Counted from the stretch's first letter, positions 1,268 to 57,025 are shown. The stretch is DNA of 64,000 nt from Vicinamibacteria bacterium (GCA_963668695.2 CAXXLQ010000004.1:2560001-2624000); one strand, 5' to 3'. The notes: a model not told the origin generated them from the letters alone. A program made the numbers and translations.

Positions 1268-1720
1268 ACAAAGTGAACCGGCATTCCCGAGCCAGAAGGG
1301 ATGGTGGTCGGGTGACCCCGCCCCCCGTCCCTTCCGCTCCGGGGTCTCCGCGGTGCTCGCGCCCCGCTCCGGGGTCTCCGCGGTGCTCGCGCCCCGCTCC
1401 GGAAGCCCGAGCCGGAAGGGATGGTGGTCGGGTAGCCCCGCCCCCCGCCCCTTCCGCTCCGGGGTCTCCGCGGTGCTCGCGCCCCGCTCCGGAAACGAGC
1501 GGCGATGCATCCCGGCTGAACCGCCCCCCCACCGGGAGAACTGGCGCTTTGCTCCGCTCGTCGTTGCGCTTCGGTCGAAATACACTCGGGCCAGTTCTCC
1601 CGGTGGGGGCTCCTCCCTCGCGCGTCTTGTCAGCCGGGCCCCCACCGGGAGGACTGGCCCCACCGGGAGAACTGGGCCTCACCACTCTCGGTGCTCGCCC
1701 CACTTTGCCCACGGACTGTT
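1257..1720. mobile_element. Family-A MITE-like element between sucC and sucD, with internal 30 bp and ~120 bp tandem duplications
   Basis: Ends ACAGCCCATGAACAAAGT...ACTTTGCCCACGGACTGT, preceded by CTAA; conserved family-A core; four copies of the 18-mer. Confidence 0.75.
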
Positions 1721-1730
1721 CGGAGGCCGC

Positions 1731-2606
1731 ATGAGCGTTCTGGTCGGTAACGAGACCCGCCTGCTCGTGCAGGGAATCACCGGGCGCGAAGGAGCGTTCC
1801 ACGCCGCGGCCTGCCGCGACTACGGGACGACGCTGGTCGCGGGAGTCACTCCCGGGAAGGGGGGACAGACCGCCGCGGCAGGCGTGCCGATCTTCGACAC
1901 GGTGGCCGAGGCGGTGGCGGCAACCGGCGCCAACACCTCGTTCGTCGTCGTCCCGCCGGCCTTCGCCGCGGACGCCCTCTCGGAAGCGGCCGACGCCGGA
2001 ATGGATCTGGCGGTAAGCATCACCGAGGGCGTCCCGACCCGGGACATGGTCCGGGTGATGCGCGCCGTCCCGCCGGGCGGCACCCGCATTCTCGGCCCGA
2101 ACTGCCCGGGAGTCATTTCTCCGGGGCGAGCCAAGGTCGGCATCATGCCGGGATTCATCCACCGGGAGGGCCACGTCGGGGTCGTCTCCCGGAGCGGGAC
2201 GCTCACCTACGAGGCGGTGCATCAGCTCAGCCAGCGCGGCATCGGCCAGAGCACCTGCGTCGGGATCGGCGGCGATCCGGTCATCGGCACCTACTTCGTC
2301 GATGTGCTCGAGCTCTTCGCGGCGGATGACGAGACCGAGGCGGTCATCCTGATCGGCGAGATCGGCGGGGGCGCCGAGGAAGAAGCCGCGGAATTCATCC
2401 GGCGCGAACTCGACAAGCCGGTCGTCAGCTTCATCGCCGGCCAGACCGCCCCTCCGGGACGGAGGATGGGTCACGCCGGGGCGATCGTCATGGGCGGCAA
2501 GGGAACCGCCGCGGACAAGATGGAGGCGCTCCGTTCGGCCGGTTGCACGGTCGTCGAGAGCCCCGCCGATCTCGGCGCCGCCATGGAAGCCCGACTTCGC
2601 GCGTAA
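1731..2606 (+). CDS. sucD: Succinyl-CoA synthetase alpha subunit
   Basis: MSVLVG...[21 protein letters not shown] and RMGHAGA (phospho-His) motifs; GGAGG upstream of ATG 1731. Confidence 0.98.
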
Positions 2607-2830
2607 CAGCCCGTGGTGAAAGCACCCCGCACGAGCCCCAGGAGGTCGCGCGCGGCGAATCCGTCGGTTTGTGTGCGTGCGGGGCGCTTTCCCCACGGGT
2701 TGGTGGTGCGAATCGCTGCGCGATTCGCACCACCGTCTTTCGTGGGGAGGGGAAACCCCTCCCCACACCCCACCCCCGCGGCGCTGCGCGCCGCGAATGG
2801 ATGCCTTCCGGGTTTCACCACGAGCTGTTA
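2606..2830. mobile_element. Family-B MITE-like element
   Basis: Inverted ends ACAGCCCGTGGTGAAA / TTTCACCACGAGCTGT between TAA and TAG; internal hairpin GTGGGGAGGGGAAACCCCTCCCCAC shared with copies at 21.3, 27.9 and 43.3 kb. Confidence 0.75.
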
Positions 2831-2853
2831 GCCCCGAGCAGAAAGAGAAGAGC

Positions 2854-3273
2854 ATGAGAACGTTTTCCATCGTGAAACCCGACGCGGTAGCGGCCGGGAA
2901 CACCGGGGCCATCCTGCAGTCGCTGGAAGCGGCCGGTTTCCGGCTGGTCGCCCTGCGCCTCGTCCGGATGACCAAGGCCGAGGCGGAAGGGTTCTACGGC
3001 GTCCACCGCGAGCGGCCGTTCTTCTCGAGCCTCACCGATTTCATGTCCTCGGGCCCGGCGGTCGTCGTGGCTCTCGAGCGGGACGATGCGATCTCCGAAC
3101 TGCGGCGCTTGATGGGCGCCACGAACCCGGCCGACGCGGCTCCCGGCACCATCCGGGCGCGCTTCGCATCCTCCATCGAACGGAATGCGATCCATGGTTC
3201 GGATTCGCCGGAATCGGCCGCCTTCGAACTCGTGTACTTTTTCCCGGAATTGGAGGGTTCTAGCGGGCTCTAG
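2854..3273 (+). CDS. ndk: Nucleoside diphosphate kinase
   Basis: [21 protein letters not shown] and NAIHGSDS motifs. Confidence 0.97.
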
Positions 3274-3418
3274 CGGGCTCTCCGGGTTTCATGGGACCCG
3301 TTGACAGTCCCCCGGCTGCGTGCCAGTGTTGACACGGCACCCCTTCACACGTACACACTCGTTGCCGCTCGGATCGTGGCGTAAAGGTACCGGGGAAGGG
3401 GTGGTACCGTTGGGAGCC

Positions 3419-3703
3419 ATGCCGGAGCAGAGCAACAACATCACGCGAGCCAACGTGATCGCGGTGGTTGCTGCTCTAGGAATTGTCGCTGAGGTCGGCC
3501 GGGAGGTTGAGGCGCATCGCTACGAGGAAGTTCGAACTAGCGGTCATCCCGTCATGGACCAAATCTATGGCGGCGAGGTGCCACCATCGGGGGAGATTTT
3601 CCCTAAACCTGTGTCGGGTTCCGACCCTGTAGACCACGCGGTAAACGCTCGTCCCGCTCGTTGGTCGTTCGCCCGGAAACGAACGGCGATGCATCCCGGC
3701 TGA
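3419..3703 (+). CDS. Orphan small ORF, possibly a fragment; its C-terminus runs into a truncated MITE
   Basis: GGGAG just before ATG 3419; hydrophobic N-terminal stretch VIAVVAALGIV; TTGACA boxes at 3301 and 3329; no recognisable family. Confidence 0.3.
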   Translation: MPEQSNNITRANVIAVVAALGIVAEVGREVEAHRYEEVRTSGHPVMDQIYGGEVPPSGEIFPKPVSGSDPVDHAVNARPARWSFARKRTAMHPG

Positions 3704-3851
3704 ATAGCTCCGCTTCGCGTCGCCCATCGTTGCGCTTCGCTCGAAATACACTCGGGCCAGTTCTCCCGGTGGGGGCTCCTCCCTCGCGCGCCTTGTCAGC
3801 CGGGCGCCTCACCGCTCTCGGTGCTCACCCCACCTTGTCCACGGACTGCTA
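3685..3851. mobile_element. Family-A MITE-like element missing its left end
   Basis: Family-A core and right end CCTTGTCCACGGACTGCTA present; no left inverted repeat. Confidence 0.7.
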
Positions 3852-4466
3852 ACGCTGACGCCGGACGGAGGAAATCGAAACTGGGAAGCATCAAGCCGGA
3901 TCGCTGGATCCGCCGGATGTCGAAAGAGCACCGGCTGATCGATCCGTTCGTGGACCATCAGGTCGGGCAGGGGGTCATCTCCTACGGGCTGTCCGCCTAC
4001 GGCTACGACATCCGCGTCTCCAACGAGTTCAAGATCTTCACGAACGTTCACACCACGATCGTGGACCCGAAGAACTTCGACGAGCGGAGCTTCGTGGACT
4101 ACAAGGGCGAGGTGTGCGTCATCCCGCCCAACTCCTTCGCACTCTCCAACACGATCGAGAACTTCCGGATACCGCGGAACGTCTACGGCATCTGCATCGG
4201 CAAGTCCACCTACGCGCGTTGCGGCATCATCATCAACGTGACCGGGTTCGACGCCGAGTGGGAAGGGAACGCGACGCTCGAGATCTCGAACACGACCCCG
4301 CTTCCGTGCCGCATCTATGCCGGGGAGGGGATCGCGCAGGTGCTCTTCTTCGAGAGCGACGAGGATTGCGAGGTCAGCTACCGGGACAAGAAGGGGAAGT
4401 ACCAGGGGCAGGAACGCATCACCCTGCCCACGATCCTCGGCCGGGGCTCCGGTTCCGGCACGTAGC
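3811..4466 (+). repeat. Direct repeat copy 1 (~655 bp; MITE end plus dcd)
   Basis: Nearly identical to 6589-7244 (offset 2778); I see mismatches only near 3852/3854, 4423 and 4462. Confidence 0.95.
3881..4465 (+). CDS. dcd: dCTP deaminase, copy 1 (probable CTG start)
   Basis: [37 protein letters not shown] and KYQGQ motifs; GGAGG ~10 nt before CTG. Confidence 0.95.
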
Positions 4467-4491
4467 AGCACTGGGCTCGGAATCGAAACCG

Positions 4492-4775
4492 ATGACCACA
4501 ATGAAAATCCGCATCCTCGTCGGTGACGCGCTCGTCCGGCTGCGGGACCTGCCGGATGAGTCCGTGCAGTGCGTGGTCACGTCGCCGCCCTACTGGGGAT
4601 TGCGCGACTATGGCAACGCCAAGTGGGAAGGTGGCGATCCGGAATGCGAACACGAGGGGAAACGGACCATCAGCGGCGGCACGAATCCGGCCGTATCATC
4701 GAAGCAGAACAGCCATCCCGGGTCGCAAGGTGGAGAGATCGGCGACTGCGTGAAGTGCGGAGCCAGGAAGGCGGA
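4492..4775 (+). pseudogene. N-terminal fragment of a phage-type N4/N6 DNA methyltransferase
   Basis: ILVGDALVRLRDLPDESVQCVVTSPPYWGLRDYG (SPPY catalytic motif) plus a Cys-rich insert; no SAM-binding DPFxGSGT part follows. Confidence 0.85.
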
Positions 4776-5202
<427 letters not shown>

Positions 5203-5257
5203 GAATATAGCCGCGTGTAAGCGGTAAGGGGGCGTCGCCTCAACCGAGGAGAACACC

Positions 5258-6236
5258 ATGAGACGAATCATCCTCTCTCTTTTCGCAACGGGCCTGCTCG
5301 CTGCCTGTCCCGGGGATTCCGGGGTCCCTCCCCCGTCCCCGACCACGCCCCTCGCCGGCGAGGCGACGCCCACCGGAGGGGGTGGGAGCGGCCTCTCGAC
5401 CCTGAGCCTCGGGGATCCGAAGATCCTCACGGTGGTCAAGGAGCAGTTCATTCAGACCTTCGGCGACGACTCGTGCTCGGTGCCTGCCGGAGCGGTTGAG
5501 GTCAGCGACCAATGGCTCAGAGTCGGATCCGGGTTGCAGTGCCGCCAGATTGCCTGGACAATCGGAAACTCGGGGGGTAGTTGCGAGGCGGGTTGCAAGG
5601 ACTGGCCAGACCCCACTACCGAGGGAGAAGGCGAAGGCGCCACCACCGAGGAGACTCCAACCACCGAGGTCCCGCCGCCGCCCGTGGAGGACGCTGCCCG
5701 TGGAGGACCTGCCCGTGGAGGACACGCCCGTGGAGGACACGCCCATGGAGGACACGCCCATGGAGGACACGCCCATGGAGGACCTGCCGCCAGTGGACTC
5801 ATGCACGGCTTCCTTCGCGACATATACCCAATCTACGAACGAGGCAATACAAGCGGCGACTTGCGACTCTTTAACCCTTTGCAAGTGGGATGCTGGGAAA
5901 TGTGTAACCTGCCAATCGAAGTTGATTGACGGAGTCGGGACCTGCCTCGACAAGCAGGTGCCTGAAATCGTGCCAGGGACCGTGTCAGGGACCGTGCCTG
6001 AAACCAATAGGTGCGAAAACCCAGACGACGAAAACCTATACAACCCGCCGGGGGGCTTCGTGGCCGGGGTGTGGAGAGACCACGACTCCGTGTGTACAAA
6101 AAGAGTGCGGGGTGGAAAATGTGAGGCTCTTTATTGGGTCGGCGTGGTCGGGGCGAGCTCAGTCGAGGCGTGTTCCGTGCCGCCTAGCTGGTGTAGCGTC
6201 CTCGATCGAGGGGACATCGGACAATGCAAAAGATAG
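5258..6236 (+). pseudogene. Cys-rich lipoprotein with PVED/PMED repeats, frameshifted near 5693
   Basis: GAGGAG RBS; lipobox LLAA-C; one extra G in GAC-G-CTG shifts the PVED repeat from ORF 5258..5929 into ORF 5496..6236. Confidence 0.65.
5681..5787 (+). repeat. 15 bp tandem repeat CCC(G/A)TGGAGGAC(ACG/CTG), about 7 units
   Basis: Directly visible in sequence. Confidence 0.9.
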
Positions 6237-6269
6237 GGCCTAACTCAGTGGTCAGAGTGTCCGCCTGTC
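6234..6269 (+). pseudogene. 5' half of a tRNA-Asp(GTC)-like gene
   Basis: 7-nt acceptor strand, TA, D-arm ACTC-AGTGGTCA-GAGT, anticodon stem TCCGC, CT-GTC; similarity stops right after the anticodon. Confidence 0.65.
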
Positions 6270-6283
6270 TCCGCTCATCACTC

Positions 6284-6330
6284 AGGGCCGTAGCTCAGCC
6301 GGTTAGAGCGCCTGTCCGATAAACAGGAGG
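6284..6330 (+). pseudogene. 5' two-thirds of a tRNA-Ile(GAT)-like gene
   Basis: D-arm GCTC-AGCCGGTTA-GAGC, anticodon arm CCTGT-CCGATAA-ACAGG, then AGG; no T-arm or 3' acceptor strand. Confidence 0.7.
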
Positions 6331-6585
6331 GACGAGGCGACGCACGGGTTCCGTCTGGTCCGGGTTCACGCCATTCTTTACGACATGGACGACAACGAAA
6401 TCCTCAATACGGTAGACACGGCCGACATCGACGAGGGCCTCTGCTCCGTCAACCACACTGTCGACTACACGTTTATCAAGTTCGACCGAACTGACGAAAT
6501 CGGCCGGGTCCTGCTTTTCTTCGCGCCCCGTACGACTCAGAACATCGAGGCGTCGGAGTTCACCTATCGGGTCTTCCCGGAGTGA
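6331..6585 (+). pseudogene. C-terminal fragment of an unknown protein
   Basis: Open, protein-like frame DEATHGFRLVRVHAILYDMDDNE...YRVFPE starts abruptly at the tRNA junction. Confidence 0.4.
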
Positions 6586-6588
6586 CTT

Positions 6589-7244
6589 ACCGCTCTCGGT
6601 GCTCACCCCACCTTGTCCACGGACTGCTAGCTCTGACGCCGGACGGAGGAAATCGAAACTGGGAAGCATCAAGCCGGATCGCTGGATCCGCCGGATGTCG
6701 AAAGAGCACCGGCTGATCGATCCGTTCGTGGACCATCAGGTCGGGCAGGGGGTCATCTCCTACGGGCTGTCCGCCTACGGCTACGACATCCGCGTCTCCA
6801 ACGAGTTCAAGATCTTCACGAACGTTCACACCACGATCGTGGACCCGAAGAACTTCGACGAGCGGAGCTTCGTGGACTACAAGGGCGAGGTGTGCGTCAT
6901 CCCGCCCAACTCCTTCGCACTCTCCAACACGATCGAGAACTTCCGGATACCGCGGAACGTCTACGGCATCTGCATCGGCAAGTCCACCTACGCGCGTTGC
7001 GGCATCATCATCAACGTGACCGGGTTCGACGCCGAGTGGGAAGGGAACGCGACGCTCGAGATCTCGAACACGACCCCGCTTCCGTGCCGCATCTATGCCG
7101 GGGAGGGGATCGCGCAGGTGCTCTTCTTCGAGAGCGACGAGGATTGCGAGGTCAGCTACCGGGACAAGAAGGGGAAGTACCAGGGGCAGGAACGCATCAC
7201 TCTGCCCACGATCCTCGGCCGGGGCTCCGGTTCCGGCACCTAGC
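6589..7244 (+). repeat. Direct repeat copy 2 (MITE end plus dcd)
   Basis: Nearly identical to 3811-4466. Confidence 0.95.
6659..7243 (+). CDS. dcd: dCTP deaminase, copy 2 (protein identical to copy 1)
   Basis: Same translation as 3881..4465; followed directly by the dUTPase gene. Confidence 0.95.
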
Positions 7245-8925: not shown

Positions 8926-9338
8926 CAGCCGGTGGATAAAGTGGCGTGAGCGCCGAGGCTGGCGAGGCCCAGTTCTCCCGGTGGGGGTCCGGCTGACAAG
9001 GCGCGCGAGGGAGGAGCCCCCACCGGGAGAACTGGCCCGGGTGTATTTCGACCGAAACGCAACGATGAGCGCCGCGAAGCGACGCGGTTCAGCCGGGATG
9101 GATCGCCGGCCGAACGCCGCGTGGGTTTCATCACCGGTTGTTTGGCCGGGATGGATCGCCGGCCGAGCCCCCACCGGGAGAACTGGGCCACGCGGGTTTC
9201 ATTACAGGCTGTTTGGCCGGGATGGATCGCCGGCCGAGCCCCCACCGGGAGAACTGGGCCGCGCGGGTTTCATTACAGGCTGTTCAGCCGGGATGGATCG
9301 CCGCTCGAACGCCGCGTGACTTTGTCCACAGGCTGTTA
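8925..9338. mobile_element. Family-A MITE-like element with internal ~72 bp duplication
   Basis: Ends ACAGCCGGTGGATAAAGT / ACTTTGTCCACAGGCTGT; abuts the BON gene stop codon. Confidence 0.8.
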
Positions 9339-9370
9339 CTTGGGCGGCCCCGGGGCCGCCCCGGCGAGCG

Positions 9371-14308: not shown

Positions 14309-14414
14309 CGCTGCTTCCGCGCACGGCGGTCCCGCGCGAACCCCTACCGGGAGAACTGGGCCCCGCGACTCCTGTCCACGGCCGGCTGGCAGCGGTGGTC
14401 AGGCGCACGAGTTG

Positions 14415-15411
14415 AGCAGCCCGCAGACAAAGTCGCGCGGCGTTCGTGCGGCGATCCATCCCGGCCAAACAGCCTGTGGTGGAACCCACGCGGCCCAGTT
14501 CTCCCGGTGGGGGCTCGGCCAGCGATCCATCCCGGCCAAACAACCGGTGATGAAACCCACGCGGCCCAGTTCTCCCGGTGGGGGCTCGGCCGGCGATCCA
14601 TCCCGGCCAAACAACCGGTGATGAAACCCACGCGGCCCAGTTCTCCCGGTGGGGGCTCGGCCGGCGATCCATCCCGGCCAAACAGCCTGTAATGAAACCC
14701 GCGTGGCCCAGTTCCATCCCGGCCAAACAGCCTGTAATGAAACCCGCGTGGCGTTCGGCCGGCGATCCATCCCGGCTGAACCGCGTCGCTGCGCGCCGCT
14801 CGTCGTTGCGTTTCGGTCGAAATACACTAGGTATTCCTCCCTCACGCGCCTTGTCAGCCGGACCCCCACCGGGAGAACTGGGCCTCGCCGGCCTCGGCGC
14901 TCACGCGGGTTCCACCACCGGCTGTTCACCGCGTCGCTTCGCGTCGCTCATCGTTGCGTTTCGGTCGCAATACACGCGGTATTCCTCCCTCACGCGCCTT
15001 GTCAGCCGGGCGCCTCGCCCCCACCGGGAGGACTGGCCGACCTCGGCGCTCACGTGGGTTCCACCACCGGCTGTTCACCGCGTCGCTACGCGCCGCTCAT
15101 CGTTGCGTTTCGGTCGCAATACACCCGGGCCAGTTCTCTGGGGGCTCCTCCCTCACGCGCCTTGTCAGCCGGGCGCCTCGCCCCCACCGGGAGGACTGGC
15201 CGGCCTCGGCGCTCACGCGGATTCCACGACCGGCTGTTCACCGCGTCGCTGCGCGGCGCTCATCGTTGCGTTTCGGTCGCAATACACCCGGGCCAGTTCT
15301 CCCGGTGGGGGCTCCTCCCTCGCGCGCCTTGTCAGCCGGGCGCCTCGCCCCCACCGGGAGAACTGGGCCTCGCCGCTCTCGGCGCTCGCGCCACTTTATC
15401 CACAGGCTGCT
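14415..15411. mobile_element. Compound family-A MITE array with 71 bp tandem units and three to four core copies
   Basis: Outer ends AGCAGCCCGCAGACAAAGT / ACTTTATCCACAGGCTGCT; 18-mer at 14495, 14566 and 14637 (period 71). Confidence 0.85.
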
Positions 15412-15924: not shown

Positions 15925-16107
15925 AGGAGCCTGTCCCGGTAATAGCACGGCATTCGACCGGCGATGCATCCCGGCTGAACCGCGCCGCTTTGCGGCGCTC
16001 ATCGTTGCGCTTCGGTCGAAATACACTCGGTATTCCTCCCTCACGCGCCTCGTCAGCCGGGCGCCTCACCGGTCTCGGTGCTCCCGCTATTACCGGGACA
16101 GACTCCT
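15925..16107. mobile_element. Family-A MITE-like element lacking the 18-mer (empty-site reference)
   Basis: 22 bp inverted ends AGGAGCCTGTCCCGGTAATAGC / GCTATTACCGGGACAGACTCCT, ending at CTAG. Confidence 0.8.
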
Positions 16108-18609: not shown

Positions 18610-18965
18610 GCGGCAGGAGCGCTTGGGAGCGCCGGTCTTCAGGCCCCCACCGGGAGAACTGGCCAGCATCGCCCGCGTAGCGGGCGCAACTCCCATCGCC
18701 CCCCCGAGCCGAAGCGCGAGGACGGCAGTCCCGCTCACCCCACTTCCACGACGTAGCTTCAGGCCCTCACCGGGAGAACTGGCCGGCATCGCCCGCGCAG
18801 CGGGCGAAACTCCCGTCGCCGCCCGAGCAGAAGCGCGAGGACGGCAGTCCCGCTCACCCCACTTCCACGACGTAGCTTCAGGCCCTCACCGGGAGAACTG
18901 GCCGGCATCGCCCGCGCAGCGGGCGCAACTCCCGTCGCCATCCGAGCAGAAGCGCGACGACGGCC
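18610..18965. repeat. Family-C REP-like repeat, three ~120 bp tandem units each carrying the 19 bp insert
   Basis: GGAGCGCCGGTCTTCAGGCC...GCATCGCCCGCG; motif at 18647, 18767 and 18886. Confidence 0.85.
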
Positions 18966-23946: not shown

Positions 23947-24033
23947 TTGGCGAGTGTACGGTTCAAGAGCGCTCCCCCGGCCGCTCGCGATCGGCCATGA
24001 TCCCGGCGCCGGTCCCAAGCACCCGAGGGCCTA

Positions 24034-24691
24034 AACAGCCTGTGCTGAAACCCAGGCGGCGTTCGAGCGGCGATCCATCCCGGCCAAACAACCGGTGATG
24101 AAACCCACGCGGCCCAGTTCTCCCGGTGGGGGCTCGGCCGGCGATCCATCCCGGCCAAACAACCGGTGATGAAACCCACGCGGCCCAGTTCTCCCGGTGG
24201 GGGCTCGGCCGGCGATCCATCCCGGCTGAACCGCGTCGCTTCGCGGCGCTCATCGTTGCGTTTCGGTCGGAATACACGCGGTATTCCTCCCTCACGCGCC
24301 TTGTCAGCCGGACCCCCACCGGGAGAACTGGGCCTCGCCGGCCTCGGCGCTCACGCGGGTTCCACCACCGGCTGTTCACCGCGTCGCTTCGCGCCGCTCA
24401 TCGTTGCGTTTCGGTCGGAATACACCCGGGCCAGTTCTCCCGGTGGGGGCTCCTCCCTCACGCGCCTTGTCAGCCGGGCGCCTCCCCGGCCTCGGCGCTC
24501 ACGTGGGTTCCACCACCGGCTGTTCACCGCGCCGCTTTGCGGCGCTCGGCGTTGCGCTTCGGTCGAAATACACTCGGGCCAGTTCTCCCGGTGGGGGCTC
24601 CTCCCTCACGCGCCTTGTCACCCGGACCCCCACCGGGAGAACTGGGCCTCCCCGCTCTCGGCGCTCACCCGGGTTCCACCACAGGCTGTTA
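24034..24691. mobile_element. Compound family-A MITE array
   Basis: CTAA-ACAGCCTGTGCTGAAACCC...GGGTTCCACCACAGGCTGT-TAA; three cores; six 18-mers. Confidence 0.85.
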
Positions 24692-26275: not shown

Positions 26276-26370
26276 GAGCGCCGGTCTTCAGGGCCCGACC
26301 GGGAGAACTGGCCAGCATCGCCCGCCGGAGGCGGGCGAAACGCGCGATGCTCACCACCCTCGCGGTGCCC
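26276..26370. repeat. Family-C REP-like repeat with 18-mer
   Basis: GGAGCGCCGGTCTTCAGGGCCCGACCGGGAGAACTGGCCAGCATCGCCC; similar to 51780-51875. Confidence 0.7.
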
Positions 26371-29822: not shown

Positions 29823-29985
29823 GGGAGCGCCGGCCTTCAGGCCGGCACTGCGGCGCGCAGCGCCGCGGAACCGCGTACCGCACATCCCGCAGAAGCGCGG
29901 GAACGGCTTGGAACGCCGGCCTCCGGCCGGCACGGCCCGCCGATAGGCGGGCGAAACCGCGCAACGCCACGCGGGAAGAAGCGCG
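29823..29985. repeat. Family-C REP-like hairpins without the 19 bp insert
   Basis: GGGAGCGCCGGCCTTCAGGCCGGCA and GGAACGCCGGCCTCCGGCCGGCA. Confidence 0.7.
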
Positions 29986-37683: not shown

Positions 37684-38246
37684 ATCCGGGGGCGAGACCA
37701 GGTTCGCAACCGCGGGCACGGAGCCCCCACCGGGAGATCTGGCGCCAATCCCCGGGGCAGCCCTCTCGGTGGCGCGCGGCACGCGGGAGCGCGAAAGTAG
37801 CGCCGATGACGTTGCGCCCCGTCAACGCGAATACCGCGCGCGCTCCTCAGCCGTGGGTGCGGGGTCTACCGTGGAGCGAGCGCGTCAACCTGAGCCGCCA
37901 AACGGCTCGTCCGGGACACAAATCCGAGTGATCCGGATCACCGTGAACCGTCTTGACCCGGAAAGGCTATTGGCCAACGCGAGCCGCTCCACGGCGCTCG
38001 AGGTGTACCTGAACGAGTCTGACCCGGGTCCCACGTGCCGGAACCGGCTCGTCGAGGTCTTGCGGTTCCGGATTCCCGTCCCGGAACCCTCCGGGTTCAC
38101 GACGTCCGCGCGCTGAACCGTTCAGAGGCGGGGGCGGCGCGGACCGCCGGAAATCCGATCCGCTCATCGGGGGCACGACGCTCGACCCCGGGAAAGGGGT
38201 CGTGAAGATCGTGTCGTCCCGCAGCGACGCTGCGCCTCCGCAGCCC

Positions 38247-40169: not shown

Positions 40170-40410
40170 TCTGCGCGCGCTTCTTCTCAAGGGGCGATGG
40201 GAGTTTCGCCCGCTACGCGGGCGATGCCGGTGTGAACACCGGCGCTCCCAGCCGCCGCGCGCTTCTTCTCGGGGGGCGATGGGAGTTTCGCGGCCTTTGG
40301 CCGCGATGCCGGTCTGAAGTCCGGCGCTCCTACCCCGCGCTTCTTCTCGGGGGGCGATGGGAGTTTCGCCCGCTACGTGGACGATGCCGGTGTGAACACC
40401 GGCGCTCCTA
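40170..40410. repeat. Family-C REP-like tandem repeat, three ~80 bp units
   Basis: GATGCCGGTGTGAACACCGGCGCTCC hairpins, repeated. Confidence 0.8.
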
Positions 40411-43281: not shown

Positions 43282-43516
43282 TGGCAGGCGGTGGAGAAAA
43301 GTCAGTCGGCGTCGGTCCGCGGCGCGGAGCGCCGCGGGGGAGGGGGGTGGGGAGGAGTATCCCTGACCCACGAAAAACAATGGCGCGGGCCCCCACCGGG
43401 AGAACTGGCGCGCAGCGATGCGCGACATCACCCCGTGGGGAAAGTGGAAAGACCGGCACATACGGCGCGTCTCTCGTCCCGGGGGCGGTGTGGGGTGCTT
43501 TTTCCACGGGGTGTTA
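43282..43516. mobile_element. Family-B MITE-like element carrying the 18-mer
   Basis: Ends GGCGGTGGAGAAAA / TTTTTCCACGGGGTGTTA, overlapping a stop codon. Confidence 0.65.
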
Positions 43517-50631: not shown

Positions 50632-50969
50632 CGCTCTCCGGACGGATCTTCCGCTTCATCCGCGCCCCACACGGGAACGCCGCTCTTCCTGGCCGCCCGG
50701 GCGAGGGCGTGCGTTGCCGTCGGGTTGGCCACCGCTACCAGGATCAGGACGAGCGCCAGCTTGACCGCCACCGCGGGATCCCGCGCCAGCAGGGCGAGCC
50801 CCAGGAGGCTGAGCGAGAGTCCGGCGGTGTCGCATTTCCCGATGGCGTGCAGACGAGTGAAGAAGTCGGGAAGGCGGAGGATCCCGACGACGGCGGCCAG
50901 GGTAAAGAAGAGCCCGGCCGCGAGAAGGACGACCGCGAGCGCGTCGGTAAGGTTGAGCCAGGAGATCAC
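50628..50969 (-). CDS. mrpG: Mrp antiporter subunit G
   Basis: GILRLPDFFTRLHA and NPTATHALARAA motifs. Confidence 0.93.
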   Translation of the reverse strand: MISWLNLTDALAVVLLAAGLFFTLAAVVGILRLPDFFTRLHAIGKCDTAGLSLSLLGLALLARDPAVAVKLALVLILVAVANPTATHALARAARKSGVPVWGADEAEDPSGER

Positions 50970-51232
50970 GGGCTGCTTGATCCTTCGAAGTACTTCGCGA
51001 GGACCAGGGCGCTGAGGAATCCGATCAACGCGTAGGCGAGGGCGATGTCCGTGAACATCTCGGGCCTCCCGGAGAGCTCGCCCGCGACCACCAGCAGGAT
51101 CAGGGTCTTGGTCCCGATCAGGGCGACACCGGAAAGCCGGTCCCAGAGTGTCGGGCCGCGGACGACCCGGAAGAGCGATCCGCCGATCGCAAGAAAAATG
51201 GCGCCCGCGAAAGCGGTCAGCAAGACGGACAT
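50966..51232 (-). CDS. mrpF: Mrp antiporter subunit F
   Basis: RVVRGPTLWDR and DIALAYALIGF motifs. Confidence 0.9.
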   Translation of the reverse strand: MSVLLTAFAGAIFLAIGGSLFRVVRGPTLWDRLSGVALIGTKTLILLVVAGELSGRPEMFTDIALAYALIGFLSALVLAKYFEGSSSP

Positions 51233-51777
51233 CAGCGCGCCGGAGGGTCGAACAGCGCCCGCACTCTTGCCGCCATCGGTCCGCCGTCCGTACCCAGGCT
51301 TCTCGCGGCCTCCGGGTCGATGGCGTGGACCTCCATCCCGTCGTCGTCGCAATCGATGGTCACGGTGCCGGGAGTCAGGGTGATGGAGTGGGCGAGGGTA
51401 AGGCGGGCGATGGGATGGGGCAGGTCATCCACAATCCGTACCACCCGGGGAGCGATGGGGAGCCGGGGATGCAGCACCAGTTTCGCAACCTCGATCGCCG
51501 ACCGGAAGATCTGCACCACCAGCCACATCCAATAGCCGAGGAAAAGGCGCCACCGGAGCGGAGCCCGCCCGAATTCGTCCGGTGGCATCGGCTGGGGAGG
51601 CACCCGGTAGAGCCTGGCGGTCGCGAGCGCGACCGCGACGGCGGTGATCAGCCCGAGCGAGAGATGGAAGGTGTCCAGTTTTCCCGAAAGCGCAACCCAG
51701 AAGCCGAACAGCAGGACGACCGCTACGACCACCGGTCGGGTCCCCACCGGGAGGACTGGGCGCCGCCGATCCGACAT
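51232..51777 (-). CDS. mrpE: Mrp antiporter subunit E
   Basis: FWVALSG, LAHSITLTPGTVTID and VHAI motifs; start uncertain. Confidence 0.9.
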   Translation of the reverse strand: MSDRRRPVLPVGTRPVVVAVVLLFGFWVALSGKLDTFHLSLGLITAVAVALATARLYRVPPQPMPPDEFGRAPLRWRLFLGYWMWLVVQIFRSAIEVAKLVLHPRLPIAPRVVRIVDDLPHPIARLTLAHSITLTPGTVTIDCDDDGMEVHAIDPEAARSLGTDGGPMAARVRALFDPPAR

Positions 51778-51779
51778 TC

Positions 51780-51875
51780 AGGGAGAACGCCGGTCTTCAG
51801 GCCCACACCGGGAGAACTGGCGGCATCGCCCGCCGGAGGCGGGCGAAACGCGCAAAGTTGGCGCTCTCACGGTGC
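51780..51875. repeat. Family-C REP-like repeat with 18-mer
   Basis: GAACGCCGGTCTTCAGGCCCACACCGGGAGAACTGGCGGCATCGCCCGCC. Confidence 0.65.
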
Positions 51876-51919
51876 CTTCTTTGCCCCGCTGAACGCTCTC
51901 CAGTTTTGAGGAATACGGG

Positions 51920-52621
51920 TTACTTGTAGTAGTTGACCCCGATCATGGCCTGCTGTGTGCGGAAGGAAAAATCCTTCGAGGACCAGATGCGGTATTCCGC
52001 GCGCGCCGACAGGTAGGAGAACACATACACCTCGAAGCCGACTGCGACGTGGGCGGTCGGGGCGTACCCGGTGTGCTCCAAAGTGATCTCGTTGCCGACC
52101 GGGATCCGGATCCCGACGGATCCCGGCTGGTTTTCTCCGCCGGGGTCGGTGGTTTCGTAGATGAGGTCCTCTCGGAGTTCGTCGCGTCTCACGATTCCGC
52201 CTCCGGCGACGACGTACATCTGGAACGGCTGGCGCCGGCCGAGGTGGTACACGATGGATCCGTCGAGATGGTACCGATTCGTCCGGAACTGGTACACCGG
52301 TTCGGCAATCACGTCTTCGACCGGCTCGTCAGCGGCCGTGTAGCGCCGGTTGGAACGCCCGAAGAAGAAACCGGTGGCGAAGCTGATGTGATCGGTGGCT
52401 CGAAAGGCGGCTGCCCCCCCCAGTCCCGCGCCCCTCCCCGGACTCAACTCCGGACGCGCGAAGAACTGCAGCCCGGCGCCAGCGAAGAGTCGGAACTTGT
52501 GATCCTGACCTGCGGCCGGTGTTGCGGCAAGCAAGCCGACAGCCAAGGCGGCGGGTACGAAGGCAGCGAAGAGGCGGCCGCGCCTCGCAACCGGCGGGGG
52601 AGTGTCTTCCGGCGCGGTCAA
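51920..52621 (-). CDS. Outer-membrane beta-barrel protein (OmpA-like TM family)
   Basis: Signal peptide, alternating beta strands, PFQMYVVAGGG, RAEYR and aromatic C-terminus. Confidence 0.7.
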   Translation of the reverse strand: MTAPEDTPPPVARRGRLFAAFVPAALAVGLLAATPAAGQDHKFRLFAGAGLQFFARPELSPGRGAGLGGAAAFRATDHISFATGFFFGRSNRRYTAADEPVEDVIAEPVYQFRTNRYHLDGSIVYHLGRRQPFQMYVVAGGGIVRRDELREDLIYETTDPGGENQPGSVGIRIPVGNEITLEHTGYAPTAHVAVGFEVYVFSYLSARAEYRIWSSKDFSFRTQQAMIGVNYYK

Positions 52622-52715
52622 TGCGCGCGGAATGCTACTTCACATCGAGCGGTCCGGGAACGGGGGCACTTTGTTGGTCGAGCGTTCCCCGGACGGGGCC
52701 ACGGCGCCTTCGAGT

Positions 52716-53063
52716 TGGTACCGTGGTCTTGATTGCGTTCGGGCCCCGTCCGGGAACCGCCCGGCGCTGCGCGCCGGCAATCGAAACTTCCTTGCCCGCC
52801 TCTCGGCGGGCTTCGGCAAGTTCCGATTGGACGTTACTGATTGTGAAAGGGGGGCGAGCCCCCCTTTCACGCTTTCCCCCCGGACACGTGGGCAGCGAAC
52901 CGGAGGTTCGCTGCCATGAGTTGTTGCTCGCTCGGTGAGACGCCGATCGTGGCTTTCCGCCGAGGGAGAAAAAGTGCGGTGCAAAGGGAGCGCTGGCCAG
53001 TTCTCGCGGTTGCGGGCCTCCAGACCGGCATCGCCTCCCGGATGCGGGCGAAACCGCGTACCA
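52716..53063. other. Highly structured intergenic element (MITE-like or ncRNA)
   Basis: Ends TGGTACCGTGGT / ACCGCGTACCA; hairpins GTGAAAGGGGGGC-GA-GCCCCCCTTTCAC and GGCAGCGAACC-GGA-GGTTCGCTGCC. Confidence 0.4.
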
Positions 53064-53114
53064 CTGTTGTCCCTGACGGCACGCAGATGCACTCCCCTCG
53101 GCTACGCTGTTGCA

Positions 53115-54884
53115 ATGCCGGGCGAGGGCGGAAACACCCCAGGGGCGACGCTCGGGCGACGTACTCCGGAGACAGGCGAACTGCGGACGCCCGGCTCGGT
53201 TGACGAACGGCAGCTGGCGCGCCGCGCCGGCTCCGTGAGCCTCGGGGTTGTTTTCTCCCGCCTTACCGGCCTGGTCCGGGAGGGAACCCTCGCCTTCCTG
53301 TTCTCGACCCCGCTGCTCGACGCCTTCTACGCGGCGTACACCTTCCCGAACACCCTTCGGGAGATGCTCGCCGAGGGGGCTCTCTCGAAAGCGTTCGTTG
53401 CGACGTTCGCCGGCGTGGACCAGGGGGAAGGAAGAGAGGCCGCTCATCGGCTCTTCGGGCGGGTCTTCCGGGTCCTGCTGCCGGTCAGCCTCCTGGTCAC
53501 CGTTGTTGGTGTGGTGTTCGCTCCCCAACTGGTGGATTTCGTGTTCTCGCGGGGAGCGTTCGACGAACCGCTTCCCAAGTCCCTGCAGTTCGGTCTCGAA
53601 ACACCGAGGGAGTTGGCCGTCTGGCTCACCCGCGTGATGTTTCCTTTCATCGCCTGCGCGTCGATCGCCTCACTCTTCATGGGGGGGCTGCAGGCGCGGA
53701 ACTCGTTTTTCCTCCCGGCGGTGGCGTCCTCGTTCTTCAACGTCACCACCATCGTCTTCACAGCGCTGGGATTCCTTTCGGCTCCCCGGTTGGGACTTCA
53801 CCCGATGGCGGGGCTCGCGATTGGCGTGCCGGTCGGAGGACTCGTCCAACTGCTGGTGCAGTGGCGGTGGTTTCGCCGAGATGGCTATCGCGCGGTGGCC
53901 ACGGGGGGAATGCGAGCCACGGTCTCCGATCCGGCCTTTCGCCGGGTGTGCCGTCTCTTTGCGCCCGCAGCGGGCGCTGCCGGGACGCTGCAGATCAACG
54001 TCATCATTTCGAGGCACTTCGCTTCCGCCGGAACCTCCTGGCTCGCCTGGTTCATGATGGCATACCGCCTCGTACAGCTTCCCTCCGGGCTCATCGGAGT
54101 CGCCTTGTCGAGCGCCACCCTGCCGGCGCTTACCCGCGCCGCCGGCCGCGGTGACCCGGACGCTTTCGGTCGGGTACTCGGGCAATCCGGCCGCCTCATG
54201 CTGGTGTTGACGCTCGTTGCCGCCGCCGGCCTCGTCGGGATCGCAACGCCGTTCGTTGCGGTCATCTACCAGCGCGGAGCCTTCAGCGCCGGGGACGCCC
54301 AGCAGGTCGCCCGGGTGCTTTCGATCTTTGCGCTGGGCCTCCCCGCTTTTGGGGCGACCAAACTGCTGTCCGACGCGTTCTTCGCGCTTGGAAGCACGCG
54401 GCCGCCGTTCCTGGTCGCCGGTGTCGGCACCGTGGTCACCTGGATCGCGACCCGGAGTTTCGTGGTTGCCGCGGGTTTCGGTCATCTGGGCCTGCCGCTC
54501 GCGACCGTTTCGGTGGCCTGGTTCTCGGCGGGATTGCTGGCGGTTCTCCTGACTCCCAGGCTCGGCGCGGATCCATCCGGCCGGTCCCGGGCAAGAGCGG
54601 TGTTTTCGGAAGTGGCGGGAGCCGGCCTTCGCGCCCTGCCGGTCGCGGCCGCCACCGGCGGCACGGCATGGCTGCTTGCGCGGTTTGTCGGCGAACGCTT
54701 CGGAAGCGGCGGTTGGGGCGATGCCGCCACGACGCTGCTCGCCACCGCTGCCGGAGGCCTCGTCTTCTGGTTCTCCGTGCGGTTCTTCGCGCCGCGGGAA
54801 TGGGATCCGATCCGCGACGCGCTCCGGGCGCTCGGCGAGCGGTTCGGTTTCGGCGGCGGAGGGCGTGGGGGAGGCCATCCGTGA
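53115..54884 (+). CDS. murJ: Lipid II flippase
   Basis: SRLTGLVRE, DAFYAAYTFPNTLR..LAEGALS.AFV and AYRLVQLP motifs. Confidence 0.93.
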   Translation: MPGEGGNTPGATLGRRTPETGELRTPGSVDERQLARRAGSVSLGVVFSRLTGLVREGTLAFLFSTPLLDAFYAAYTFPNTLREMLAEGALSKAFVATFAGVDQGEGREAAHRLFGRVFRVLLPVSLLVTVVGVVFAPQLVDFVFSRGAFDEPLPKSLQFGLETPRELAVWLTRVMFPFIACASIASLFMGGLQARNSFFLPAVASSFFNVTTIVFTALGFLSAPRLGLHPMAGLAIGVPVGGLVQLLVQWRWFRRDGYRAVATGGMRATVSDPAFRRVCRLFAPAAGAAGTLQINVIISRHFASAGTSWLAWFMMAYRLVQLPSGLIGVALSSATLPALTRAAGRGDPDAFGRVLGQSGRLMLVLTLVAAAGLVGIATPFVAVIYQRGAFSAGDAQQVARVLSIFALGLPAFGATKLLSDAFFALGSTRPPFLVAGVGTVVTWIATRSFVVAAGFGHLGLPLATVSVAWFSAGLLAVLLTPRLGADPSGRSRARAVFSEVAGAGLRALPVAAATGGTAWLLARFVGERFGSGGWGDAATTLLATAAGGLVFWFSVRFFAPREWDPIRDALRALGERFGFGGGGRGGGHP

Positions 54885-55879
54885 GTTCCGGGGCGGGGAA
54901 ACTGCGTCCGGCGCCAACGGGCGCGGAAGATCGATCCGCACGGAATCGGGCTTCGCCGGCGGCGGGGGATCCGCGGGCGGAGGAGTTTCTGAACCACCTC
55001 CGGGTGGAGCGCCGGCTTTCGGAAAACACGCTCGACGCTTACCGCCGCGATCTCGGGAAGCTGAACGAGTTCGGCGCCGGCCGTGCGCTTGCCGAATTCG
55101 ACACCAGGGATCTGCAGCGCTTTCTCACCCATCTGCACCGCCGCGGCCTCTCCTTCCGGTCAATACAGCGGGTCACCTCCGCGATCCGTGGCGCGTACGC
55201 GTTCCTGATGGCCGGTGGGGCCATCGAGAAGGATCCCACCGAGGGAATTACCGTGGCGCGGGCCCTGCCGGGGCTCCCCCGCTATCTGTCACCCGACGAA
55301 GTGGAGCGACTGCTCGCTGCGCCCGATGACTCCCCGCTGGGTCTGCGCGACCGGGCAATGCTCGAGATGCTCTACGCGACCGGTCTTCGGGTGTCGGAAC
55401 TCGTAGGCCTACGGGTAATCGATGCGGTTTCCGCGCGCGGCGAGGGGCCGGGCTACGTCACCGTGATCGGCAAAGGGGACAAGGAGCGCATCGTTCCCTA
55501 CGGAGATGTCGCCGCCGCGAGCCTGGAATCGTGGATACGGGAGGGGCGGCCCCGCGTGCTGGGGAAGCGGGGTCGGGAGACCGGGTCGCCCTGGCTCTTC
55601 GTGACGGCTCGCGGCGGGGCGATGACCCGTCAGCGGTTCTGGCAGATCGTCAGGACTCGCGGCGAACAGGCGGGGATCCCGCGCCGCTTCTCACCTCACG
55701 TGCTGCGCCACTCGTTTGCGACGCATCTGCTCGAGCGCGGGGCCGACCTGCGGAGCCTGCAACAGATGCTTGGCCACGCCTCGATCACCACCACCCAGAT
55801 CTACACCCACGTCACCGAGGAGCGCCTGCGGCGGGTGTACGACGAGCACCATCCGCGCGCCCGGCGCGGCGATTCCTAG
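54881..55879 (+). CDS. xerD: Tyrosine recombinase XerD
   Basis: ERRLSENTLDAYRRDL, RDRAMLEMLYATGLRVSEL, GKGDKERIVP, MTRQRFW, SPHVLRHSFATHLL and TTQIYTHV motifs. Confidence 0.93.
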   Translation: MSSGAGKLRPAPTGAEDRSARNRASPAAGDPRAEEFLNHLRVERRLSENTLDAYRRDLGKLNEFGAGRALAEFDTRDLQRFLTHLHRRGLSFRSIQRVTSAIRGAYAFLMAGGAIEKDPTEGITVARALPGLPRYLSPDEVERLLAAPDDSPLGLRDRAMLEMLYATGLRVSELVGLRVIDAVSARGEGPGYVTVIGKGDKERIVPYGDVAAASLESWIREGRPRVLGKRGRETGSPWLFVTARGGAMTRQRFWQIVRTRGEQAGIPRRFSPHVLRHSFATHLLERGADLRSLQQMLGHASITTTQIYTHVTEERLRRVYDEHHPRARRGDS

Positions 55880-56151
55880 TGGCCTGTCGATAAAGTGGCG
55901 GGAGCGCAGAGAGCGGCGAGGCCCAGTTCTCCCGGTGGGGCCAGTTCTCCCGGTGGGGGCCCGGCTGACAAGGCGCGCGAGGGAGGAGCCCCCACCGGGA
56001 GAACTGGCCCTGGTGTATTTCGACCGAAGCGTAACGATGAGCGAGGCGAAGCCCCAGTTCTCCCGGTGGGGGCGCGGTTCAGCCGGGATGCATCGCCGGT
56101 CGAGCCCCCACCGGGAGAACTGGGCCGCGTGACTTTGTCGACAGGCTGCTA
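55878..56151. mobile_element. Family-A MITE-like element at the xerD stop codon
   Basis: CTAG-TGGCCTGTCGATAAAGT...ACTTTGTCGACAGGCTG-CTAA; five 18-mers. Confidence 0.8.
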
Positions 56152-56164
56152 AGGGCCCTTTCCG

Positions 56165-56770
56165 ATGCCCTTCGACGCTGGCGGAAAGAGGCAGTTCCCG
56201 GTGGGGCGTTTGTCGGAAGTGCAGGCGAAGGCGGTCGACCGGATGGCCGCGGATCTGCGCTCCGGCGCCGTGGTGGCCTTCCCCACCGAAACCTTCTATG
56301 CACTGGGCGCCGATCCACGCTCCGCTGAAGCGGTGTCCGAGGTATTCCGCCTCAAGGGTCGCCCGGGGGACCGCCGGCTGCCCTGGATCGCCGCGAGCCG
56401 GGCGCAGGTAGAAGGCGTCTGCCATCTGCCCGAAACGGCGGCCGCCTTCGCGGATCGCTACTGGCCTGGTCCCGTCACCCTGGTACTGCCGCTCCGTAGC
56501 CCTGGTGGGGAAGGGGTGGCGGTCCGGGTGAGTTCGCATCCGCTGGCGCGGGCGCTGGCTGAAGCCCTCGGCCATCCGGTGGTTTCGACGAGCGCCAATC
56601 CGAGCGGCCGGCCGCCGGCGGCTACCGCCTCCGAGGTCCGAGAGGCGTTCTCGGGCCAGAACGCGCAGAACCTCCGGATCCTGGATGGAGGACGGACCCC
56701 GGGCGGGGAACCCTCCGTCATCGTCGATCTGACGGGTGCGTCGCCCAGGATCCTGAGAGGAAGGCTCTAA
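56165..56770 (+). CDS. tsaC: L-threonylcarbamoyladenylate synthase (YrdC/TsaC)
   Basis: VAFPTETFYALG, LKGR, WPGPVTLVL and STSANPSG motifs. Confidence 0.92.
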   Translation: MPFDAGGKRQFPVGRLSEVQAKAVDRMAADLRSGAVVAFPTETFYALGADPRSAEAVSEVFRLKGRPGDRRLPWIAASRAQVEGVCHLPETAAAFADRYWPGPVTLVLPLRSPGGEGVAVRVSSHPLARALAEALGHPVVSTSANPSGRPPAATASEVREAFSGQNAQNLRILDGGRTPGGEPSVIVDLTGASPRILRGRL

Positions 56771-57025
56771 CAGCCTGTGGTGGAACCCGGGTGAGCGCCG
56801 AGAGCGGCCAGTTCTCCCGGTGGGGGCGAGGCCCAGTTCTCCCGGTGGGGGTCCGGCTGACAAGGCGCGTGAGGGAGGAGCCCCCACCGGGAGAACTGGC
56901 CCGAGTGTATTTCGACCGAAACGCAACGACGAGCGGCGCACAGCGGCGCGGTTCAGGCTGGATGGATCGCCGCTCGAGCCCCCACCGGGAGAACTGGGCC
57001 GCGTGGGTTTCACCACCGGCTGTTA
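56770..57025. mobile_element. Family-A MITE-like element at the tsaC stop codon
   Basis: CTA-ACAGCCTGTGGTGGAACCC...GGGTTTCACCACCGGCTGT-TAA. Confidence 0.8.

Follow-up and report, generated by a model that had tools for sequence, protein, structure and literature searches.

How a non-coding, non-palindromic sequence of some twenty nucleotides comes to stand inside several unrelated families of intergenic repeat is the question raised by a 64,000-nucleotide stretch from a Vicinamibacteria bacterium (GCA_963668695.2 CAXXLQ010000004.1:2560001-2624000). This stretch, hereafter the window, corresponds to G000:C4:2560001-2624000 in an assembly of 4.10 Mb, 67.5% G+C and four contigs, with a completeness of 91.7%. 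A preliminary description of the window had reported a short motif behaving as an insertion within repeats and suggested that it is repeatedly written into GC-rich hairpin DNA. Our analysis of the window, of the whole genome (G000) and of its relatives divides this proposal, in that a discrete block does occupy many non-homologous positions but most of its copies result from the spread of host repeats. On balance, we regard it as an even call that a very small, non-coding insertion unit, with the motif as its core, was written many times into GC-rich hairpin repeats and afterwards spread, for the most part, passively.

A sharply bounded unit in many contexts

Copies were scored as matches to the 17-mer CCCACCGGGAGAACTGG with up to two mismatches in ungapped scans, since nhmmer under-counts tandem units. 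The window holds 42 such matches (31 exact, 10 with one mismatch and one with two; 26 on the plus and 16 on the minus strand), where 0.02 are expected and none of 100 shuffled sequences reached 42, in agreement with an earlier manual count of about 40 on both strands. The match with two mismatches, at 16899 within an open reading frame (ORF), is at chance level. Genome-wide there are 1648 copies, 1296 of them exact, or about one per 2.5 kb; they are shared equally between the strands of the main chromosome (780 plus, 802 minus) and spread evenly, without relation to GC skew and without replication-strand bias. A sequence logo of all copies resolves a sharply bounded unit, GCC-CCCACCGGGAGAACTGG-SCC, with the consensus GCCCCCACCGGGAGAACTGGSCC. 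Information content is approximately 1.8-1.97 bits over the core and at most 0.6 bits outside the flanking GCC and SCC triplets, and the one common polymorphism is A or G in GAG[A/G]AC (0.88 vs 0.11). The unit may be written (G)C-CCCCACCGGGAGAACTGG, 19-20 bases in all, in which CCCCACCGGGAGAACTGG is an invariant 18-19 bases, mostly with GC before it. As previously stated, it is non-palindromic: read from its sequence, the motif alone offers a stem of 4 bp at most, and the fold of a motif doublet (dG -7.4 kcal/mol, z +1.09) is no more stable than those of shuffled sequences. Head-to-tail doublets with an 18-nt period do occur, at 1641/1659 and 55923/55941.

Sites were anchored on their flanks and the intervening sequence scored as filled, empty or other. 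At every site type the constant block GC+CCCCACCGGGAGAACTGG stands in place of one or two other bases of the empty form (AA, AT, AC, CA, GC or A), and at each well-sampled site the filled form exceeds the empty one by exactly 18 or 19 bases. Which base the block begins with depends on the site: C at pos4, A or G at pos2. The empty forms are given below, where siteB and pos1 to pos4 denote positions within the principal host repeat (family A).

siteB: CCGA-AC-GCCGCG; 347 filled, 337 empty and 67 other among 751 anchored sites
pos1: GGA-AT-ACCG
pos2: CCGG-GC-GCCTC
pos3: CCTC-N-CCGGC; net +19
pos4: CCGC-GY-CGCT
Family-B hairpin: GCGG-AT-CGCG
REP-C/D hairpin: GCCGG-TCTKMAG-A-CCGGC; net +19
Further site: GGCTG-AA-CCGC
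Further site: CAGCCGGG-AT-GGATCG
Further site: GTGTGAA-CA-CCGGCG

The coordinates quoted in the preliminary description were all correct, including its three pairs of empty and filled sites (29829 vs 18751-18790, 24470-24490 vs 15010-15040, and 16019-16043 vs 1578-1612). Its account of one of these as a +19 insertion with GGCC repeated must be amended: no consistent target duplication was found between filled and empty sites, and GGCC is target sequence at some sites only.

The flanks of all copies fall into 104 single-linkage clusters, comprising 22 with at least three members, 10 pairs and 72 singletons. Among these contexts are sites 2-7 nt apart, a site near pos3 where the block is inverted, flanks of REP-E/F type and the junction where two ends of family-A elements meet. 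The palindromic REP-C/D hairpin is filled on both strands (GAAGG, 56 filled and 17 empty; TCAGG, 24 filled and 13 empty), and the block replaces the last base of its loop, since only one filled form exists among the scored AGA/ACA loops. In predicted folds, the block lies at the junction of loop and 3' arm in siteB, pos3, REP-C/D and family B, at the junction of loop and 5' arm in pos2, inside a weak stem in pos1, and at the base of a stem in pos4.

Mobility of the host repeat and reshuffling of its sites

Most motif copies belong to one composite MITE (miniature inverted-repeat transposable element) of about 220 bp, family A, with ends YTARCAGCCKGTGG (YTARCAGCCTGTGG ends). There are about 1500 ends of the form YTARCAGCCKGTGG, and 515 adjacent plus/minus pairs have a median length of 219 nt; the family displays the hallmarks of a MITE in its terminal inverted repeats (TIRs), a length within 100-400 bp, the lack of an ORF and its many copies. 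The claim that the motif takes at least five positions in family A, and recurs in families B and C, held true: there are five main positions in the MITE (siteB and pos1 to pos4), besides the long hairpin family B and the palindromic hairpin REP-C/D (GCCGG-N8-CCGGC), and further small hairpins with CCGG stems are also hosts. A 53-nt unit of family A forms tandem arrays that have a 71-nt period when filled. The predicted fold of a full MITE (56768..57012) consists of nested stems of motif pairs (dG -83.6 kcal/mol, z -8.3), and inverted pairs of the form M-(31 nt)M+ produce 20-bp stems (dG -35, z -5.4; dG -30, z -5.6). Across the genome, for example at window positions 1400-1500 and at C4:1633552-1634563, a third module (..TTCCGGAGCGGGGCGCNAGCACCGCGGAGACCCCGGAGCG..) can follow the siteB anchor where the motif or the empty form would otherwise stand. 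It accounts for about 45 of the 751 sites anchored there, and its arrays extend up to approximately 1 kb inside MITE ends.

The genome G001 is a relative 93-97% identical to G000 over a collinear region of about 165 kb that includes the window, and comparisons were confined to that collinear part. The features of the window are listed here with their state in G001 where it differs; signs after positions give the strand of each motif copy.

1470..1722: composite family-A MITE with four motif copies (1528+, 1591-, 1641+ as G variant, 1659+); pos4, pos1 and the pos2 doublet filled; the array 1239-1722 is absent at the orthologous G001 site, and its pos4 and pos1 copies pair as a 20-bp stem
3680..3850, plus strand: partial family-A MITE with one motif copy (3757-3773, minus); pos1 filled, pos2 and pos3 empty
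8927..9365: MITE and tandem 71/53-bp units; motifs 8969-, 9019+, 9170+, 9241+; empty junctions (CCGAACGCCGCG) at ~9110-9125 and ~9300-9320; unrelated sequence in its place in G001
14343..15400: 71-bp units and at least three MITE copies, filled and empty units side by side; nine motif copies (14343, degenerate; 14495-, 14566-, 14637-, 14865+, 15020+, 15183+, 15293-, 15350+); 14366-15349 absent in G001
15960..16085, plus strand: family-A MITE piece, the reference empty form; pos4, pos1, pos2 and pos3 all empty (...AATACACTCGGTATTCCTCCC...)
18631..18905, plus strand: three tandem units of ~120 bp whose REP-C hairpin loops carry the motif (18646 exact; 18766 and 18885 CTCACC variants)
24023..24676: two 71-bp units and three MITE copies; six motif copies (24114-, 24185-, 24315+, 24431-, 24579-, 24629+); pos2 and pos3 empty at 24470-24490; TIR remnant only in G001
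26280..26335, plus strand: filled REP-C hairpin, one-mismatch variant CCGACC...
29829..29855, plus strand: empty REP-C hairpin (GCCGGCCTTCAGGCCGGC) with a 7-bp stem
37726..37742, plus strand: single motif copy in non-repetitive flanks, one mismatch (GAGATCTGG)
40226..40403: a tandem row of three REP-C/D hairpins, all empty, with loops TGTGAACA / TCTGAAGT
43392..43408, plus strand: motif in a family-B hairpin repeat, GCGG-AT-CGCG becoming GCGG-[GC+18-mer]-CGCG; filled in G000 and G001, empty in another relative, G004
51743..51825, plus strand: G-variant motif copy (51743), with a 12-nt internal duplication in G001, and filled REP-C hairpin (51789-51825, variant CACACC)
55902..56150: MITE with five motif copies (doublet 55923-, 55941-; 55991+, 56054-, 56107+)
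56768..57012: complete MITE (TAACAGCC...GGCTGTTAA) with four motif copies (56808-, 56833-, 56883+, 56981+); at 56788-57002 G001 has the element inverted at the same site, with other motif states and one motif copy

Of two supposed solo sites, the copy at 37726 is indeed the sole window copy in non-repetitive flanks, and the copy at 14343 is instead the edge of a MITE remnant. No syntenic match for the copy at 37726 was found in five congeners. Among the family-B copies listed, two of ten are filled.

Whole arrays of 250-980 nt are present in one of the two genomes and missing in the other, and 18 gap intervals contain motifs (10 in G000 only, five in G001 only and three in both). Since whole arrays have been gained, lost or inverted between G000 and G001, the MITE is the recently mobile unit and carries the motif along. 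At 56788-57002 the opposite orientations arose either when the element inverted between its long terminal repeats or when it inserted independently at a hot spot. Differences also exist on a smaller scale. One orthologous MITE is identical over about 250 nt in both genomes, the block at pos3 being the only difference, and G000 has the filled form of a REP-C hairpin that is empty in G001. Within the motif itself the two genomes differ by 12 nt duplicated in one case, 12 nt deleted in another and a partly duplicated insert of 32 nt in a third.

The filled and empty states have been reshuffled. Across 452 oriented MITEs the ratios of filled to empty are 171/225 at siteB, 171/202 at pos1, 147/249 at pos2, 130/236 at pos3 and 49/319 at pos4; 120 different state patterns occur, with 63 elements empty throughout, and when sites are grouped by identity of their 80-nt flanks, 23 of the 73 groups contain both states. 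On a FastTree phylogeny of flanks (675 rows), which is weak in being built from 80 nt, the states require 155 changes, compared to 213 +/- 6.6 (minimum 189) for shuffled labels, indicating phylogenetic signal in the states and yet much turnover. The G variant (G11) is concentrated at pos2 (80/220) and pos3 (41/206) and is scarce at siteB (1/331), pos1 (6/323) and pos4 (0/60); 18-nt doublets are ordered GA (83) or AA (57), with one AG and no GG; and a variant one base shorter occurs at pos3-type flanks. As these variants are position-specific, most copies trace back to ancestors particular to each position, by way of spread and conversion of the host repeats, and a shared pool of donors was not their source. 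Spread by duplication or conversion of the host repeat alone, which had been named as the finding that would overturn repeated writing, hence explains most of the approximately 1650 copies, but one ancestral insertion cannot explain 104 contexts.

A parent for the MITE was sought in several places. No transposase was found in longer TIR-bounded segments, five of the six listed segments above 700 nt having been translated; these hold tandem repeats or an amidase-like gene. Two of the seven IS5-like (PF01609) loci and two of the four IS630-like (PF13358) loci were checked, and none of these elements had the MITE ends; the MITE-type ends at one IS630-like locus belong to neighbouring MITEs and not to the element. 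The IS630-like element at G000:C4:667050-668190 (locus L154, 925-2070) has ends GTGTGGTGTCC, unlike those of the MITE, with TA on both sides, and is inserted exactly at CTAG between two abutting MITEs. TA also adjoins the ends of the MITE itself, and that it usually precedes them hints at a Tc1/IS630-type mobiliser, although the TA duplication (218 of 495) is not above composition. We also rejected as parent a 3.4-kb segment at window positions 3245-6633, which is a duplication with a methylase-like ORF and not a transposon. Present in G000 and not in G001, this segment has a lower G+C (0.627) and is bounded on its two sides by the copies of a duplicated dCTP-deaminase-like gene (3821-4465 and 6599-7243). 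Inside it are an ORF (4114-5202) that carries an SPPY DNA-methyltransferase-like motif and, at 6284-6363, a weak match to a tRNA.

Genes, relatives and the age of the block

Relative to genes, which were called crudely from ORFs and GC3 only, no exact copy lies deep inside a credible ORF anywhere in the genome, so the motif is, as had been said, almost entirely intergenic; each of the 11 candidates within ORFs is either no more than 300 nt away from the predicted start of an ORF or a look-alike with one or two mismatches. Around 450 spacers contain the motif (251 of the 1151 tandem spacers, 120 of the 391 convergent ones and 81 of the 367 divergent ones), with up to nine copies in one spacer, and its orientation is unbiased with respect to transcription (391 same, 403 opposite). 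A repetitive flank adjoins 1596 of 1647 copies on at least one side. G000 is an unusually repeat-laden bacterial genome, in which 15-mers occurring at least three times cover 939 kb, or 24%, of the main chromosome and some 48% of contigs C1 and C3.

When species-representative genomes were scanned, the word proved nearly confined to metagenome-assembled genomes labelled Vicinamibacteria, 'Candidatus Marinacidobacterium' or 'Ca. Poriferihabitaceae' and to sponge-metagenome Acidobacteria, single matches in unrelated taxa being at chance level. The exact 17-mer is present in all 15 genomes of the genus and in four other genera of the family, and in none of 16 genomes from two sister families. In assemblies of one to three contigs, exact counts are 6 (G010), 36 (G019), 45 (G014), 83 (G009), 221 (G018), 536 (G008), 636 (G004) and 1296 (G000). 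Low counts in fragmented assemblies may represent assembly loss, and suggest that most of the repeat sequence of these sponge symbionts may go missing when they are assembled from short reads. G010 has 98 empty pos1 MITE sites and six exact motifs; being rich in the MITE and poor in the motif, it indicates that the MITE lives without the block and that the empty form (hairpin AATAC...GTATT) is plausibly the original. Different genera favour different motif positions. The positions found in G000 recur in other genomes and genera, as does its A/G polymorphism. G018 has the dialect CCCCTACCGGGAGAACCGGG at siteB beside standard copies elsewhere, and in a genome of another genus (loci L016, L017, L033 and L066) that dialect and 13-nt partial tandem copies CCGGGAGAACTGG stand beside standard copies in the same elements.

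Such conservation invites the view that the motif is abundant as a selected signal, whether as the binding site of a protein of the host or of an element, as a DNA-uptake sequence or as an RNA element, which we think highly improbable. The phylogenetic restriction just described would suit a signal, as would the lack of polymorphic columns in the insert (21 nt at 241 anchor-defined sites, with an identity of 0.996 vs 0.877 in the 40 nt upstream) and a GGGAG/GGA core that, read from the sequence, could occupy a 10-nt loop. Yet conservation across genera is about as strong in the adjacent MITE columns and in the MITE consensus as in the motif, a scan of the window with Rfam returned a tRNA as its only match and no family for the motif, there is no bias to transcription or replication, and the motif occurs in all three kinds of spacer, divergent, tandem and convergent. 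Complete congeners carry anywhere from 6 to 1296 copies, a single spacer holds up to nine, and selection would not explain how the block arrives at new sites. The uptake variant, which the preliminary description had offered, fits poorly. The motif resembles DNA-uptake sequences (DUS/USS) as a short exact word occurring about once per 2.5 kb, equally on both strands and common to a bacterial family; uptake sequences, however, are frequent inside genes, from which the motif is practically excluded, and it is clustered within mobile repeats.

A second alternative is that the block is an old module of one mosaic repeat superfamily, in which a few ancient indels, one for each position, were spread by duplication, inter-family recombination and conversion and the 20-mer was never inserted as such. 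Much of the pattern would follow from this: the position-specific variants and ordered GA doublets, the phylogenetic signal of the states, the mobility of whole arrays, the positions and polymorphism shared between genera, and the likely paralogy of the siteB and pos1 flanks and of the pos4 and pos3 flanks. It demands, however, an identical block in unrelated repeats (family B, both strands of REP-C/D, the REP-E/F flanks and the junction of two MITE ends), with clean borders each time at sites only 2-7 nt apart, and the motif-poor, MITE-rich G010 implies that the block was not an original part of the MITE. We consider an ancient module quite improbable.

The origin of the primary insertions

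That independent micro-insertions happened follows from the 104 contexts, the two orientations, the filling of both REP-C/D strands, the differences between orthologous sites and the 98 empty sites of G010. Under the reading we prefer, the block would have been written separately many times into pre-existing GC-rich intergenic hairpin repeats of a sponge-associated Vicinamibacteria lineage, each primary event putting the block, in either orientation and with no regular target duplication, in place of one or two bases at a stem-loop junction or beside it. The great majority of the approximately 1650 copies would then have arisen passively as the host repeats (the MITE of about 220 bp, the 71-bp tandem unit and the CCGG-stem hairpins) multiplied, and filled and empty alleles would have been shuffled among hundreds of near-identical hosts by gene conversion or recombination, with tandem slippage in addition. 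We infer that the primary insertion was a directed copy-and-paste on hairpin DNA by a trans-acting factor, and not an ordinary replication error.

Replication error is nonetheless the substance of a third alternative, which dispenses with any dedicated mechanism: template switching in replication or repair and microhomology-mediated copying between thousands of GC-rich hairpin repeats, together with quasi-palindrome correction, by which one hairpin arm receives a block from the other, would create new copies, and gene conversion and MITE bursts would add the rest. Motif copies in the MITE do pair as 20-bp stems, the junctions are replacements with a variable first base and lengths of +18 or +19, the flanks are rich in GCC/GGCC microhomology, and the small internal duplications and deletions that separate G000 from G001 (12, 12 and 32 nt) are of the kind expected; with a quarter of the chromosome repetitive (24%, as above) templates are plentiful, and the genome has neither a RAYT nor a reverse transcriptase. 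What such copying should leave behind, however, is ragged borders and carried-over donor flanks, rather than the same block with nearly the same two borders in 104 contexts. Nor are hairpin partners specially associated: arm-to-arm copying has no specific signal in co-occurrence within MITEs, where odds ratios (ORs) are 2.6 for pos1-pos2, 1.7 for siteB-pos4 and 1.4 for siteB-pos3 (the last two not significant), as against 5.8 for siteB-pos1, a pair in the same orientation. Furthermore, REP-C/D and family-B hairpins contain single copies without an inverted partner to copy. We judge this explanation rather unlikely.

Several points nevertheless weigh against repeated writing by a factor. No enzyme has been found and no insertion has been caught in the act; the orthologous filled and empty differences can equally be explained as conversions from other copies; and the variable first base and the +18/+19 lengths would fit microhomology-guided template switching as well. 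The structural site is not uniform in the predicted folds. Primary events are fewer than contexts, because the siteB and pos1 flanks are alike, as are those of pos4 and pos3, and are probably paralogous. Finally, singleton copies are more decayed than those borne by MITEs, and primary insertion may thus be ancient and now inactive in this genome.

The search for an agent covered the recognised candidates. There was no match in G000 to Y1_Tnp/RAYT (PF01797), at a completeness of 91.7%, no RVT_1 reverse transcriptase, and no TnpB match above the cut-off. Of the genus's 15 other genomes, 13 have RAYT-like genes, but their presence does not track motif number: they are missing in motif-rich G004, G018 and G019 and present in motif-poor G010. 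Within 1.5 kb either side of the relatives' RAYT-like gene there were 0, 1 and 0 motif copies at three loci, so these genes are not motif-flanked. Such Y1 transposase genes were noted in G001, G010, G014 and others (loci L158-L163), the G001 ORF having the HUH motif PNHVHVLV. Of the two mechanisms suggested earlier, RNA-templated addition gained no support, there being no RVT_1 in the genome, and no recombinase could be tied to the motif for a micro-insertion. The idea that the motif represents fused or abutted ends of insertion sequences (IS) was rejected for this genome, half-motifs almost never occurring alone. The sole IS110-family element of G000 (G000:C4:482020-483880; DEDD transposase, 428-aa frame) is inserted in a REP-D variant, between ..CCAGAGGT and CGGCGTTCC, directly beside a motif copy, and its non-coding left end of about 370 nt could encode a guide (bridge) RNA; as a single copy beside a motif-bearing REP-D variant it was set aside as a passenger. 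It is conceivable, although we think it unlikely, that a trans-acting activity of no recognised kind, neither RAYT/HUH nor reverse transcriptase, swaps one or two bases at stem-loop junctions for a fixed sequence of 19-20 bases. Were this so, the block would be the smallest known actively mobile DNA unit outside cyanobacteria, and its agent should be findable in a family whose members have from 0 to about 1300 copies.

A literature search found no publication on the motif or on the repeats of these bacteria, yielding an unrelated zebrafish paper for the former and one genome note for the genus and family, but several known systems may be compared. In an account reportedly given by Elhai et al. 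in 2008, small dispersed repeats (SDRs) are non-coding sequences of about 20 nt, present in hundreds of copies and nested in other repeats, with mobility judged from filled and empty sites. To our knowledge, how sequences of SDR size reach new sites has never been explained, and we know of no enzyme for it. The motif, a non-coding block of 19-20 nt in 1648 copies, agrees with SDRs in copy number and approximately in unit size (about 20-27 nt), in being nested within other repeats, and in its filled and empty sites, orthologous ones included. It differs in belonging to Acidobacteriota (class Vicinamibacteria) and in its unrelated sequence, and contrasts with SDRs, compared by description only, in being non-palindromic, in replacing one or two target bases and in being borne mostly by one MITE family. 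Two papers characterize the SDRs of heterocyst-forming cyanobacteria as "very small mobile repeated elements" (PMC3116915, PMC2884548). The abundance of our motif is mostly ordinary, a matter of MITE bursts and conversion, and it is the primary writing that resembles the SDR problem. The motif supplies a second, unrelated phylum for very small mobile repeats, with clear junction anatomy and a host MITE that also exists without the insert, and the gradient of copy number among closed genomes of the family (0, 1, 6, 36, 45, 83, 221, ~550 and 1296) allows a comparative search for the factor and a test of enzyme against replication error.

Neisserial mosaics (dRS3 with RS units) and the BIMEs of Escherichia coli are intergenic arrays in which a motif of about 20 bp alternates with longer repeat units; dRS3, whose ends are inverted, serves phage as a target for integration. 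The alternation of motif and 53-nt unit with a 71-nt period resembles such NIMEs and BIMEs, but the motif, unlike dRS3, has no link to phage or integrase, its one match in viral contigs being at chance level. BIMEs and Neisseria mosaics are both mentioned in PMC3733652. REPs and REPINs resemble the motif in being extragenic, in their hundreds to thousands of copies, in mosaic arrays and in inverted pairs that form long hairpins; the IS110 element beside a motif copy also recalls the insertion of IS elements at REPs described in that paper (PMC3733652). The motif differs in that its unit is no imperfect palindrome, its consensus lacks a GTAG or CGTC tag as defined in the same source (PMC3733652), and G000 has no RAYT. 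In Thermomicrobium roseum, Di Nocera et al. 2013 (PMC3733652) describe GTAG-23 REPs nested in palindromes CCGSSCC(n3-4)GGSSCGG, many copies of which are empty. Our REP-C/D hairpin is similarly a GC-rich palindrome, filled or empty, with a short repeat in its loop region; the inserts of T. roseum, however, are GTAG-tagged palindromic REPs in RAYT-bearing genomes, whereas the motif is non-palindromic and also takes non-loop positions.

Twenty sequencing runs from seven studies match part of the window, and four were compared over 37001-57000; the read data are k-mer contigs that end at the motif and repeats, and are uninformative on motif polymorphism. The runs differ among themselves, at strain level, by in-frame indels of 18 nt at 47663 and 21 nt at 54942, which are tandem coding repeats unrelated to the motif.

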